A stretch of DNA of 64,000 nucleotides. It comes from Candidatus Schekmanbacteria bacterium (GTDB lineage Bacteria > SZUA-182). Shown here in pieces: positions 11,888-53,973 of the stretch. The stretch's first letter is position 1; each line of letters opens with the position of its first letter. Position numbers and translations under genes: made by a program. The notes below the pieces were generated by a model. It worked only from the letters and a program-made list of their open reading frames with translations, was not told the DNA's origin and ran no database searches. The stretch spans positions 1,779-65,778 of the forward strand of contig JACRJN010000131.1 in assembly GCA_016235675.1 (NCBI GenBank). The letters are read 5' to 3'.

Positions 11888-12090
11888 TTCACCACAAAGC
11901 ACACGAAGATCACGAAGAAAAAATAAATAGTTTAATTAAATATCATAAATAGTAGGGTGGGCTGCGCCCACCATTACCTCAAACTCATGAATATTCTTAA
12001 AATGGTGGGCGCAACCCACCCTACAAACTGCATTACCGTAAAAAAATAGCATTTGTAATTCTTCGTGTGCTTCGTGCGCTTCGTGGTGAA
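11888..12090. repeat. R-F composite: CACGAAG nonamer-triplet arms enclosing an R-D doublet (11952..12024)
   Basis: Left arm CACAAAGCACACGAAGATCACGAAGAA. Right arm TTCTTCGTGTGCTTCGTGCGCTTCGTGGTG. Confidence 0.9.
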
Positions 12091-12124
12091 AAGAAATTTA
12101 CCCGCAGTTTATCGCCATGATCCA

Positions 12125-12838
12125 TTATTGGCTGACCGTCACATCGACCAAATTCCCTTGCTGGATACGAAAGCCTGAGGGCGGGGATTGATCGATCACG
12201 ATACCGGGTGAAATCCCCTGATAGATTATCTGCCCGACCTTGCCTAAGCTGGCATTCATGATTTTCAAGCGGCGTGTCACCGAATCCACCTGCTGTCCGA
12301 TAAAATCCGGCATAAGATAATTCTCAGTCATCGGGCCTTTACTGACCAATAGATTGACTTTCGTGCCCCGTTTGACGCCGAATCCCGCCGGAGGCGATTG
12401 CCCGATAATCTCCTGAGATGGCGCGTAATTATAAACCCTGGCCAAAGTCCCGATGCCTAAACCTTCCTTGTGCAGAACAGACTGCGCCTGATGCCAGGCT
12501 GTCCTCAATAAAGTGGGGATTTTTACCAATTGCGATCCCCGGCTTAAAATAATCCGTACTTTACGTCCGGCTTTGATGGTACTGCCGGCCGGCGGATGTT
12601 GAGCGATTATGTAATGGCTGGGAACTCCGGCATTAAATTCCTGCTCCTCGATTTCCAGGCGCAAATTTAATTGATTCAGCTTTTCCAAAGCATCGACGAT
12701 ATTTTGCCCTTCCAGGGCGGGGACTGTAACCTCTGTGCCTTTGATAAAAAAGCGCAGGCTTAAAAAGGCGCTCGACAATCCCAAAACAATCAATCCGAAA
12801 AAAATGAACAGTAATCGTCCCCAGGAACTCTTGGTCAA
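12125..12838 (-). CDS. Membrane-anchored PASTA-domain protein (three PASTA repeats)
   Basis: TM segment then three repeats of type VP.L.G......A...L...GL. TTG start at 12838 chosen because AAGGAG lies 6 nt upstream. The track ORF extends to 12880. Confidence 0.7.
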   Translation of the reverse strand: MTKSSWGRLLFIFFGLIVLGLSSAFLSLRFFIKGTEVTVPALEGQNIVDALEKLNQLNLRLEIEEQEFNAGVPSHYIIAQHPPAGSTIKAGRKVRIILSRGSQLVKIPTLLRTAWHQAQSVLHKEGLGIGTLARVYNYAPSQEIIGQSPPAGFGVKRGTKVNLLVSKGPMTENYLMPDFIGQQVDSVTRRLKIMNASLGKVGQIIYQGISPGIVIDQSPPSGFRIQQGNLVDVTVSQ

Positions 12839-12883
12839 CTTAAACTCCTTAAGGTTAGAGATAGTTGCAAAAGTCCCCAAAAT

Positions 12884-12967
12884 GTCATTCCCGCAATGAT
12901 TTTAAGCGGGAATCTGGTTTTAACTGCTTGAAAAACCATATCCCCGATAAAAACATTCGGGGATGAC
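12884..12967. repeat. R-K element: GTCATTCCCG...CGGGAAT ... TCCCCGATAAAAACATTCGGGGATGAC
   Basis: Two hairpins within inverted GTCAT ends. Second copy at 28275..28364. Confidence 0.9.
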
Positions 12968-12981
12968 AGATAGTTTTGCAA

Positions 12982-14316
12982 CTACCTCGTTAACTTAGCG
13001 ACAAAGAAACCGTCGCTGAAATCTTTTTGCGTCCACGAATGCCAATAATTGCAGGCTTTCCCGTCCGTAATTATCGGCGCTGATTGCCAGCCTGGGTGAG
13101 TTTTTAAAAAACCTTCGATTACCTGTTCGTTTTCCTCCTCCTCCAGGCTGCATGTAGCATACACCAAAACACCGTCATTTGCCAGATACGGCGCAGCCTG
13201 TGCTAATAATTTCCCTTGGGAAACCGGCATTTTATCAATCAATTCAGGTGATTTATACCAACGGGCTTCGGGATAACGTCCCAAAACGCCCAGTCCGGAA
13301 CAGGGCGCATCTATTAATATCCGATCATATTTTTGACCTGAGGCTATCGGCAAAGCAACCGCGGCGTCCGCACATAAACCATGCACGGTATTTATCCCCA
13401 AGCGCCGACAATTGGCTTGATTTTGCCGCAGTTTATCTGAATTGATGTCTATCGCTTCTATCCACCCCTGATTTTGCATCAATTGAGCCAGATGGGTGCT
13501 TTTTACCCCCCGCCCGGCACACAAATCCAAAACCCGCTGCCCCGGTTTCGGGTCAAGAACCTGACCGACAGATTGTGAGCAGGGGCTTTGTATCTCGATA
13601 CAACCGTCCTGATAAGCCCGGCTGCAAACGAAATCGACACCGGAAACAACCTCTAATGCGCCGCTTATCGAGATATGGGGAGCAGTCACAATATTCTCTT
13701 GCAATAACCGTTCCTGGCATCCGGCCAGCGTAGTCTTAAGCGTATTTACACGAAACGCAGTGATCGCCGGTTGATTATTCCCGGCGCAGATTTGTTTAGT
13801 CTTTTCCACCCCCCAGCGCTTTATCCAGCGCCTGATTAACCATTCCGGATGCGAATAATCGACGGAGATGTTCAAGACGGGATTTTCCTCCCAGGCAGGC
13901 AAAGCAGGCAGGGCTTTTAAGGTGCTGATTTTTCTTAAAACGGCATTGACTAAATTGTTACTACCCGGATAACCATAGCGACGGGCAAGAGTAACGCTTT
14001 CATTTACCGCGGCATAGGGGGTAATCCCTTTGAGGAAAAGCAGTTGATAGGCGCCCAGGCGCAGGATATTCAACACCGCGGGATGGGTTTTTTTCAAGCG
14101 CTGACCGGTCAGATAATTCAACACCCAGTCCAGCTTGAGCCTCAAGCGCAAAACACCGTTGACCAGTTCCTTCAAAAGGGCTTTATCTTGCGGACTTAAC
14201 GGATATTTTTGATAAACTTCCAGAATTAATAAATTGGCGGAACTGTTTTGGGTTTCGATCGCTTGCAGAATTTTTAAAGCCAGTTCACGGGCGGCAGGTA
14301 CCGATTGCTTTTTCAT
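12982..14316 (-). CDS. rsmB: 16S rRNA (cytosine-C5)-methyltransferase RsmB (NusB-like N-terminus plus Nop2/Sun MTase)
   Basis: 444 aa. VLDLCAGRGVKS SAM motif, ILIDAPCSGLGV and ATCS catalytic Cys motifs. Confidence 0.9.
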   Translation of the reverse strand: MKKQSVPAARELALKILQAIETQNSSANLLILEVYQKYPLSPQDKALLKELVNGVLRLRLKLDWVLNYLTGQRLKKTHPAVLNILRLGAYQLLFLKGITPYAAVNESVTLARRYGYPGSNNLVNAVLRKISTLKALPALPAWEENPVLNISVDYSHPEWLIRRWIKRWGVEKTKQICAGNNQPAITAFRVNTLKTTLAGCQERLLQENIVTAPHISISGALEVVSGVDFVCSRAYQDGCIEIQSPCSQSVGQVLDPKPGQRVLDLCAGRGVKSTHLAQLMQNQGWIEAIDINSDKLRQNQANCRRLGINTVHGLCADAAVALPIASGQKYDRILIDAPCSGLGVLGRYPEARWYKSPELIDKMPVSQGKLLAQAAPYLANDGVLVYATCSLEEEENEQVIEGFLKTHPGWQSAPIITDGKACNYWHSWTQKDFSDGFFVAKLTR

Positions 14317-52928: not shown

Positions 52929-52933
52929 AAAAT

Positions 52934-52994
52934 CGTTGACGGTTGACGATTGTCGGTTATTATTTTTTTAACTGACAACTGACAACCGTCAACA
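52934..52994. repeat. GTTGACG/GTTGTCA heptamer palindrome with T-rich loop (possible bidirectional terminator)
   Basis: CGTTGACGGTTGACGATTGTCGGTT ATTATTTTTTTA ACTGACAACTGACAACCGTCAACAG. Confidence 0.85.
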
Positions 52995-53005
52995 GAAATA
53001 TTACC

Positions 53006-53530
53006 ATGAACCTCTTATTACATATTTGCTGCGCTCCCTGCACGGTCTATCCGCATCAGCAATTAACCCAGGCCGGGGTTCAGATTAAGGGATTCTTCTT
53101 CAATCCCAATATTCATCCCCTTCAGGAATTTAAAAAACGGCTGCTGGCGGTGCAGCAGTTGCAAACAATCACCGGGCTACCGGTAATCTATCGGGATGAA
53201 TATGGTTTGGAAGAATTTGTGCGCCAGGTGGTTTTTCGGGAGCAACAGCGCTGTAGCTTTTGCTACTTTTGGCGCCTGGAGATGGTGGCTAAAACCGCCA
53301 AGGAACAAAATTGCGCGGCATTTTCCAGCACCCTGCTTTACAGCAAGTATCAAAAGCATGAATTGATCAAAGAAATCGCTGAAGATATAGCTCAAAAGGA
53401 AAAGATTCCCTTCTATTATGAAGATTTCCGCCGCGGCTTTTCGGAAGGCATAAATCTATCCAGGCAAATGCAGCTTTACCGCCAGCCCTATTGCGGCTGC
53501 ATTTACAGCGAGGCGGAAAGGTATAAATAG
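53006..53530 (+). CDS. queH: Epoxyqueuosine reductase QueH (DUF208)
   Basis: 174 aa. LLLHICCAPC, FFNPNIHP and a C-terminal YRQPYCGC motif. Confidence 0.85.
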   Translation: MNLLLHICCAPCTVYPHQQLTQAGVQIKGFFFNPNIHPLQEFKKRLLAVQQLQTITGLPVIYRDEYGLEEFVRQVVFREQQRCSFCYFWRLEMVAKTAKEQNCAAFSSTLLYSKYQKHELIKEIAEDIAQKEKIPFYYEDFRRGFSEGINLSRQMQLYRQPYCGCIYSEAERYK

Positions 53531-53550
53531 GTTTCGGTATCCGATATTAT

Positions 53551-53973
53551 CACCACGAAGAACACGAAGGGCACGAAGAATGGTATGAATAGGATAAAGG
53601 TAAAGAGTGAAGGTAAGGGACTTAGAAGATATTGACATACCCCCCACCCTAACCCTCCCCCGCAAGGGGCATAGGCGCTAACTTAGGCATTTAAAGTTCC
53701 CTCTCCCCCTGGGAGAGGGTTAGGGTGAGGGTACCATAATTTAATTTTTTAAGCTTTTGTACCATCATCCCGACCTTCTCCCAAGGGGAGAAGGAGCCTA
53801 AGTTAGCGCTTATGCCCGCAAGGGGGGAGGGAATTTATCCCCCTCCCCCCTTGATGGGGGAGGGTCGGGGTGGGGGTGATTATCGCGATCCTGAAACGGT
53901 ATGTTTGAAAATTTCAAGTCCCTAAACACCCTTTTCCCTTTTTCCCTTCGTGGCCTTCGTGCTCTTCGTGGTG
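53551..53973. repeat. R-F composite: CACGAAG arms enclosing about 360 nt of nested G/C-run palindromes
   Basis: CACCACGAAGAACACGAAGGGCACGAAGAA ... CCCCCACCCTAACCCTCCCCCGCAAGGGGC, CTCTCCCCCTGGGAGAGGGTTAGGGTGAGGG, CCTTCTCCCAAGGGGAGAAGG, GGGGGAGGGTCGGGGTGGGGG ... CCCTTCGTGGCCTTCGTGCTCTTCGTGGTG. Confidence 0.88.

Follow-up and report, generated by a model that had tools for sequence, protein, structure and literature searches.

Four intergenic loci in a 64-kb stretch of the genome of Candidatus Schekmanbacteria bacterium (GenBank assembly GCA_016235675.1, contig JACRJN010000131.1, positions 1,779 to 65,778) are bounded by inverted arms, each built of three tandem CACGAAG-type units. The whole stretch of 64,000 nucleotides is called the window below, and positions are counted from its first letter. 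It is close to certain that the four loci belong to a family of small cassettes whose native cargo is a gene for a GxxExxY protein. In our preferred reading, to which we give a probability of roughly 0.6, each arm is a terminal set of three recognition sites, read on DNA and probably by the nuclease that the cassette encodes, and the four loci are gene-less shells of these selfish cassettes. The shells most likely persist and spread as non-autonomous elements.

Through reading of the region and an unbiased inverted-repeat scan, we found the four loci (L1 to L4 in order of position; loci from other DNA have three-digit numbers) where a first-pass annotation of the window had described them. One architecture is common to all: the left arm comprises three units with a period of 9 nt, and the right arm is its inverted complement. 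The unit at L1, L3 and L4 is CACGAAG plus 2 nt, with two CACAAAG variants; period and variants are as that annotation described. All six units of L2 are CACGGAAG plus 1 nt, with the period still 9 nt, and this variant was seen in none of 214 loci examined from other DNA. The pattern CACGAAGNNCACGAAG, with up to two mismatches, gave 12 double-unit matches in the window against 0.20 expected, and none of 100 shuffles reached 12, so the arms far exceed chance. Arrays of at least three generalised units numbered seven, against 0.07 in shuffles. A conserved TTCAC, or GTGAA on the other side, prolongs the window arms outward.

The same arms were found widely in other bacteria. A scan of one genome per species, seeded with the exact tri-nonamer, gave at least 119 loci in more than 15 phyla; the source genome was not among the species representatives listed. 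The hosts listed include Acidobacteriota, Planctomycetota, Verrucomicrobiota, Desulfobacterota, Chloroflexota (with the complete genome of Herpetosiphon aurantiacus), Methylococcales, Thioalkalivibrio, Binatia, Methylomirabilota, Nitrospirota, Nitrospinota, Gemmatimonadota, Alpha- and Betaproteobacteria and others. The consensus is tTCAC-CACGAAG-RR-CACGAAG-RR-CACGAAG followed by its mirror image, and the window arms agree with it position by position. Between arms, identity at the unit positions is 86-100%, and conservation of the flank reaches to about -5. Among the matches listed, three is the most frequent unit number (arrays of nine occur in L016 and L043 only), and 116 of 163 exact arms have a head-to-head inverted partner within 600 nt; nine of the remainder are cut off by the locus end and four have a tail-to-tail partner alone. 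Among these matches, most arms are paired. Empty arm pairs with minimal loops are the commonest form among these matches, 69 pairs having loops below 120 nt, many of 5-25 nt. Target-site duplication was not detected: 51 elements had no excess of 2-5 nt direct repeats at boundary offsets of 0-8. The first-pass annotation knew of no element class with this layout, and full-text search likewise gave no published description of the arms or the cassette, only primer coincidences or passing mentions, and no paper matching the double-unit strings. An origin of the arms as coding repeats (H-E-G and similar) was rejected for paired elements, which are intergenic in every gene orientation.

Two unusual arrangements were seen in this material. 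A Vicinamibacterales metagenome-assembled genome (MAG; L049 6474-7802) carries at least eight CACGAAG hairpins in tandem, one about every 155 nt; this array contains a run of N and resembles satellite-like amplification. Six Herpetosiphon loci (L012, L026, L081, L087, L093 and L119) have a GATC-preceded arm of three CACGAAG units, then a direct CGCGAAG/CACGAAG triplet and then GGCTATG-type heptamer runs, with no inverted partner nearby.

Some seemingly solitary arms were found to abut an ATG followed by MEFDELSNRVIGCAIEVHRELGPGLLES.YE. Through translated search, an open reading frame (ORF) was detected between the arms of L034 and L113, an ORF cut by the contig end in L063, L098 and L007, and a short remnant in L075. 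The complete ORFs matched TIGR04256, "GxxExxY protein" (E-values 3e-41 and 7e-45), and PF13366 (PDDEXK_3); no transposase family matched. The intact cassette has about 430-450 bp and reads TTCAC-(CACGAAGRR)x3, ATG, 123-aa GxxExxY protein, stop, (YYCTTCGTG)x3-GTGAA. Only 0-20 nt separate the left arm from the start codon and 2-12 nt the stop from the right arm, and there is no room for an own promoter. Lacimicrobium alkaliphilum (CP013650, 89164-89535), Desantisbacteria-like contigs and L132 have the gene within the same bracket. Some longer database proteins start with the translated left arm (HHEEHEGTRR-M, SPRRARRTRR-M, TTKGTK); their N-termini are mis-called because the reading frame runs through it. 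The layout is not confined to this genome but forms the two ends of a pan-bacterial cassette with the GxxExxY gene as native cargo.

The association also appeared when we started from the protein. We sampled 80 metagenome loci in this way, with 77 genes having full flanks. At least two units in canonical orientation stood on at least one side of 60 of these genes (13 in the reversed-orientation control) and on both sides of 39 (6 in the control), and 25 had at least three units on both sides. GxxExxY is thus a gene that co-occurs with the arms across genomes, of the kind the first-pass annotation had proposed to look for.

The GxxExxY family is large, with 33,175 clusters at 50% identity (E<=1e-3), or 14,714 at E<=1e-10. 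Each query gave more than 8,000 clusters at 90% identity, and the best 120 were 80-95% identical in amino acids across phyla. No relatives were found in viral contigs, and no solved structure was matched by sequence. The structure was predicted with a mean confidence (predicted local distance difference test, pLDDT) of 93 from a diverse alignment, against 46 from a shallow one, and the best structural matches of the model were the nuclease domains of Cas4, Dna2 and BpuSI. D67, E77 and K79 are invariant. On the predicted model, GxxExxY is a Cas4-like PD-(D/E)XK nuclease fold. In the PD-(D/E)XK survey that is Pfam's source paper, PF13366 is listed with function "Unknown" and "multiple transfers". 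Five proteins (P0361, P0362, P0366, P0368 and P0376) of about 270-295 aa contain two tandem GxxExxY domains, the second of which is devoid of the D...E-x-K residues; these proteins hint that the family acts as a dimer.

Three independent deletion intermediates (L075, L038 and L126) were found, which link the gene-bearing cassette to the empty hairpins. In L075 and L038, only N- and C-terminal coding fragments are left between intact arms. L126 contains, at 2790-2960, an extra 172-bp cassette in tandem with an intact one, in which codon 11 is fused to the last 16 codons; this copy is absent from L122, the same locus of the same species in another metagenome sample. In both L126 and L122 the host dCTP deaminase ORF ends within the left arm (...FYHEEHEEH*), so the element supplies the last residues and the stop codon of that gene. 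No coding remnant was detectable in 89 of 94 interiors of other genomes, and about 90 hairpins stood against two to five gene-bearing cassettes among the genome-scan matches listed. In Binatia-like genomes, single contigs contain several members of a subfamily whose 24-nt loop (GGTTCGGA...TCCGAACC) is conserved, which indicates that gene-less copies multiply as such. The window contained no GxxExxY ORF or remnant in a six-frame profile search (best E-value 1.4), so its copies are gene-less derivatives, as are 91 of the 94 interiors from other genomes.

The units are clade-specific within the same architecture: CACGAAG, CACAGAG, CATGAAG, CACGGAG, CACAAAG, CGCAGAG/CGCGGAG, CGCAAAG and CAGTGAG were found, some with an 8-nt period. 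Proteins with the same unit were 64.6% identical pairwise, against 58.5% for pairs with different units (permutation p<0.0005); the unit type follows the GxxExxY protein clade, not the host phylum. In 11 cassettes of the CACGAAG clade, four-fold sites were 31% identical, which is saturation, and codon positions 1+2 were 79% identical; the arm 7-mers, which are under strong purifying selection, matched the consensus at 99.5% of positions, a value somewhat inflated because the detection pattern C[AG]NN[AG]AG fixes three of the seven positions. In both arms, about 80% of the bases in the two-base spacers are purines when read on the unit strand, and the complementarity of the spacers between arms is no more than chance (35-45%; 12/48 in cassettes). 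G-U against A-C mismatches numbered 33 and 25 relative to flanking genes and 17 and 22 relative to the cassette gene, so the sense strand has no excess of G-U over A-C. Arm mismatch rates in register and out of register were 0.50 and 0.47, with no signal of position-specific covariation between arms in the six informative cassettes; the samples for strand and covariation were small (12-51 elements). Constraint falls on the sequence of each unit, equally and with mirror symmetry in both arms, and not on the pairing between them, as is predicted for protein recognition of duplex DNA and not for an RNA stem alone. The likeness to multi-site protein-binding ends, suggested at first pass, is borne out by 7-mers conserved far beyond the needs of pairing and by free spacers. 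As for the transposase or recombinase ends then named as examples, the layout of terminal recognition arrays stood, and the lack of target-site duplication argues against a classical DDE transposase. The nuclease is the likely reader, since it is the only protein that travels and co-diverges with the arms.

We infer that the nuclease binds the units and drives the copying or insertion of the element, and the route by which copies move is proposed on the same footing. The arms would be read as DNA and not as an RNA stem, most likely by the cassette's own nuclease, working as a dimer or a larger oligomer. An internal deletion that removes the gene would then leave hairpin-forming arm pairs, which may persist and multiply in intergenic DNA in the manner of REPINs (hairpin-forming doublets of repetitive extragenic palindromic, REP, sequences) or of miniature inverted-repeat transposable elements (MITEs). 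Their loops may tolerate or attract further insertions, and in this Schekmanbacteria genome the loops have been filled by other local palindromic repeats, giving the "variable cargo". Any enzyme-driven movement would be by breakage and host repair, a homing-like copying between arm-bearing sites; this route is proposed because a minimal PD-(D/E)XK enzyme is not known for strand transfer, and it would fit both the nesting described below and the absent duplications. Further, we might tentatively speculate that GxxExxY nuclease and tri-nonamer arms make up an unrecognised class of mobile element that can do without a transposase or recombinase, although we hold this wider claim to be doubtful. 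In such a class the Cas4-like enzyme would recognise its own arrays, perhaps as an extruded hairpin or cruciform, and break DNA there, and repair would copy the cassette or the gene-less shell into other hairpins. Elements nested in loops, missing target duplications and a unit that co-diverges with the protein would all be explained in this way.

Several points weigh against reading on DNA by the nuclease. About one fifth of the sampled genes have no detectable arms, and 6 of the 77 lie between arms in the inverse arrangement. Co-divergence of unit and protein would equally follow from simple co-inheritance of gene and arms, and the 99.5% conservation is subject to the inflation given above. 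The arms do fold as a strong outer stem (z of -11.1 for L1 as DNA and -6.7 for L3 as RNA). The enzyme is, to our knowledge, a 123-aa PD-(D/E)XK core with no separate DNA-recognition domain, and we know of no strand transfer by this fold. The predicted binding, cleavage and transposition are deduced from sequence. An intact cassette that could act in trans was looked for within the 64-kb window and not found there, and the perfect-arm seeding biases the copy numbers and paired fraction of the scan towards intact elements.

In the main rival reading, which we consider unlikely, the arms work on RNA, like the intervening sequence (IVS) of 23S rRNA. The paired arms would form a stem of about 27-30 bp cut by host RNase III, the interior would be excised from the operon transcript and the downstream ribosome-binding site freed; arms would be kept because they make the insertion harmless or control a toxic nuclease. 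The arms do form the closing stem of the predicted single-strand fold, with 7-bp helices split by 2x2 internal loops, but the spacers pair no better than chance and G-U is not favoured over A-C, which argues that selection does not act on pairing. Pairing alone would also need neither three identical units nor purine-biased spacers in both arms. Excision from a transcript would suit the promoterless cassette, and it would suit the four window loci, which all have co-directional neighbours and one arm whose outer end is followed within 15-30 nt by a start codon; across genomes, however, elements were found not only between co-directional genes (34) but also between convergent (12) and divergent (6) ones. 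The Coxiella 23S IVS is a close parallel (PMC4990558), yet no Rfam family corresponds: at the gathering score, the window and 18 loci matched only the transfer-messenger RNA (tmRNA) and one tRNA. A role at the RNA level could coexist with reading on DNA.

The remaining explanations are far less probable. That the tri-nonamers bind a conserved host protein, nucleoid-associated or regulatory, and mark operon junctions with GxxExxY as a frequent passenger, is very unlikely: the window arms do stand next to gene starts and the 7-mer is very strongly conserved across phyla, but the unit changes with the GxxExxY clade rather than the host phylum, the arms are absent at syntenic sites in relatives, and copies form tandem arrays and nests (L049, L068). 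Nor does a neighbouring gene or function recur; an all-against-all BLAST of 781 ORFs from the loci gave nothing beyond common large families. We give even less credit to the arms as integron-type attC sites, with GxxExxY genes as integron cassettes. The empty hairpins resemble attC sites in being imperfect palindromes of 70-110 nt with unpaired internal positions that stand after a promoterless ORF, but here the arms flank the ORF on both sides, the outer ends are TTCAC / GTGAA and not RYYYAAC / GTTRRRY core sites, and the elements are single and scattered among housekeeping genes with no integrase recurring nearby. Least probable of all is independent slippage, in which local short tandem repeats flank palindromes by chance like the short tandemly repeated repetitive (STRR) sequences of cyanobacteria or the TAACTGA repeats. 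Tandem arrays of other units with a 7-nt period do occur in the window, and TAACTGA repeats are also spread across phyla with no explanation (PMC4679880); against this, more than 15 phyla share the 7-mer, the copy number of three and the TTCAC flank, the arrays are tied to one gene family, and long arrays are rare.

With the gene as native cargo, the hairpins inside the four window loci are secondary, local palindromic repeats having filled the loops. In keeping with the first-pass annotation, the four interiors could not be aligned with one another, which speaks against one duplicated sequence; those of L1 to L3 belong to repeat families with further copies in other parts of the window, away from any arms. 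Nested elements were found in other genomes. In L068 (3395-3724), a CACGGAG-armed hairpin is concentric within a CACGAAG-armed one; similar nesting of other arm families (CACGGAG or CACAGAG) was found in L092 (5187-5447), L044 (4-600), L004, L070 and L086, and the gene-bearing cassettes L135 and L143 hold a second hairpin between stop codon and right arm. The interiors of about 128 nt in several genomes had no mutual homology. Nesting and the local repeats in loops point to loops as sinks or targets for further insertions, and the idea of a carrier that accumulates insertions agrees with this modular interior; the data fit either tolerance of the loop or targeting of it. Two repeat families of the window interiors have diverged relatives in other phyla. 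The G/C-run palindromes CCCCTCTTTGGCAAAGAGGGG and CCCTCCCCCGCAAGGGG were seen at 31519-31671, 53640-53880, 60099-60147 and 60352-60391. Diverged relatives of them were found in two MAGs, one deltaproteobacterial (L031) and one of Thioalkalivibrio (L076), and in a metagenome contig (L200), and the palindromes look like a second repeat type common to several phyla.

The flanks of all four window pairs are co-directional housekeeping genes (PASTA-domain, AMP-binding, GGDEF, type II secretion F, QueH and RnfC-like). The left arm of L1 (11886-11919, plus strand) reads TTTTCAC-CACAAAG ca CACGAAG at CACGAAG aa and stands on the upstream side of a minus-strand gene (10816-11862), about 23-30 nt from its start codon at 11862. 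Its interior of 139 nt (11920-12058) is a hairpin doublet of the local repeat family GTAGGGTGGGCTGCGCCCACC, with further copies at 4119-4144, 4651-4672 and 29225-29249. The right arm (12059-12092, minus strand) has three perfect CACGAAG units plus GTGAAAA and is located 32 nt from the stop of the minus-strand PASTA-domain gene (12125-12880). The left arm of L2 (31487-31518, plus) reads TTAAC-CACGGAAG c CACGGAAG c CACGGAAAA, that is 8+1 nt with period 9, and adjoins the start of a minus-strand AMP-binding enzyme gene (29951-31474). The interior (31519-31671, 153 nt) holds G/C-run palindromes also present at 60099-60147 and 60352-60391 and, in diverged form, in L031 and L200, and the right arm (31672-31703, minus) is the inverted complement of the variant left arm, with 94% complementarity.

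The left arm of L3 (51375-51404, plus), AC-CACGAAG gc CACAAAG ca CACGAAG aaa, is located 78 nt past the stop of the GGDEF gene (50434-51297). Its interior (51405-51654, 250 nt) holds several hairpins from local repeat families that recur at 8276-8304, 14445-14484, 26970-27000, 42620-42645 and 61452-61477; the right arm (51655-51684, minus) has three perfect units and is followed, after about 25 nt, by the type II secretion F gene with its ATG at 51708. L4 starts 19 nt past the stop of queH (53006-53530) with the left arm TCAC-CACGAAG aa CACGAAG gg CACGAAG (53550-53578, plus). Its interior of 367 nt (53579-53945) holds nested G/C-run palindromes, with short relatives in L076 and no second copy in the window. 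Its right arm (53946-53974, minus) has three perfect units plus GTGA; the RnfC/Nuo51-like gene starts about 25 nt further on, with its ATG at 53998. A solo arm was found at 60457-60479 on the minus strand, with CACAGAG / CACTGAG / CACAGAG at an 8-nt period (CTCTGTG t CTCAGTG g CTCTGTG tgaaaaa on the plus strand). The arm belongs to the right margin of a repeat-packed intergenic region (59775-60520), and the ATG at 60522 follows about 42 nt further on; a partner was looked for and none was found. CACAGAG is the unit of another GxxExxY clade.

In the nearest relatives the T2SSF-queH synteny is conserved, yet the matching intergenic sites are devoid of arms; this is weak evidence of gain, since the QueH proteins are only 67-68% identical. 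The Logan contig L120 (1986 bp) corresponds to window positions of about 51656-53641 and is an independent short-read assembly of the same organism. It breaks inside the right arm of L3 and inside the interior of L4; such repeats fragment assemblies, which is probably why most database GxxExxY genes sit on contigs of about 1 kb.

Three further hairpins of the window, at 6788-6929, 20294-20357 and 42545-42602, have tandem-repeat arms with a 7-nt period (GGCTTGA, GATACGA and GTTGTCA). By analogy with the Coxiella 23S IVS, which has three tandem heptamers upstream of its S23p ORF, they may be shells of four-helix-bundle (S23p-type) cassettes; no gene-sized heptamer-armed S23p cassette was present among the loci examined. 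The window also contains a tmRNA gene (62293-62660, plus strand; Rfam RF00023, 194.9 bits), a small ORF with DUF5615 / PIN-like domains that is probably a toxin-antitoxin component (587-949, plus) and a small ORF with an RVT_3 (RNase H-like) domain (7574-7942, minus).

The link to a defined DNA structure gives a testable role to GxxExxY / PF13366, a large bacterial family of unknown function, with the cognate nonamer array as a defined substrate. It also explains intergenic hairpins and spurious small ORFs (HEGHEE, TKDTK and FVSFVV peptides) that encumber the annotation and break the assembly of many environmental genomes. If the nuclease mobilises the arms, the cassette would represent a novel kind of mobile element of very small size, and its recognition units would be programmable-looking 7-mers that differ between clades.

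Several known systems can be compared with the cassette. REPINs and their RAYTs (REP-associated tyrosine transposases) also comprise abundant intergenic hairpin-forming inverted doublets and a nuclease gene flanked by inverted copies, with no target-site duplication and with gene-less copies far outnumbering gene-bearing ones. However, the enzyme here is predicted to be a 123-aa Cas4-like PD-(D/E)XK protein (PF13366) and not a Y1 HUH transposase, and the arms are three tandem nonamers where a REP is a single imperfect palindrome with a GTAG head. RAYTs are usually single-copy and vertically inherited, whereas the GxxExxY gene is multi-copy and near-identical across phyla (80-95% amino-acid identity). 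MITEs are likewise short, non-coding, multi-copy, intergenic and nested elements. They too have terminal inverted repeats and arise from a coding parent through internal deletions, as seen here in L075, L038 and L126; here, target-site duplication is lacking, the parent has no known transposase and each inverted repeat is itself made of sub-repeats. Free-standing homing endonuclease genes share the small nuclease ORF as sole cargo, tightly bracketed by sequence that is also found unoccupied, a visible cycle of invasion, decay and loss, and a specificity that appears to co-diverge with the flanks. Their site is a conserved host gene, whereas the "site" here is a dispersed non-coding repeat with widely varying arm spacing when empty. 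The ends of Tn7, Mu, IS21 and the eukaryotic hAT and CACTA elements have several direct repeats of a short motif per end, with the ends mutually inverted; the units here are only 7+2 bp, with three copies at both ends, and neither a DDE enzyme nor target duplication was found.

The TAACTGA/STRR heptamers of Beggiatoaceae and cyanobacteria are also short tandem units, intergenic near start codons, with unexplained cross-phylum spread (PMC4679880), but they form direct arrays of 2-43 copies at a 7-nt period and not inverted arms, and no gene is linked to them. The Coxiella 23S IVS is a selfish element of 428 nt with a promoterless ORF of about 14 kDa. Three tandem heptamers directly precede its start codon, and RNase III cuts at the first of these repeats (PMC4990558). 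With the IVSs that carry an S23p ORF (Coxiella, Leptospira and others), the cassette shares the size of about 430 nt, the promoterless ORF of about 120 aa within an inverted-end stem, the three short tandem repeats before the start codon, the proneness of the ORF to internal deletion and the horizontal spread (PMC4990558). Unlike them, the cassettes lie between protein-coding genes and not in 23S rRNA helices, the ORF encodes a predicted nuclease where the IVSs have a four-helix bundle, the units recur every 9 nt (sometimes 8) instead of every 7, the repeats stand on both sides as inverted arrays, and a role of RNase III is a prediction from the stem. Taken together, the element comes closest in its working to a REPIN-RAYT system or to a MITE and its parent, and in its appearance to a 23S IVS, and it differs from each of them in a defining test.

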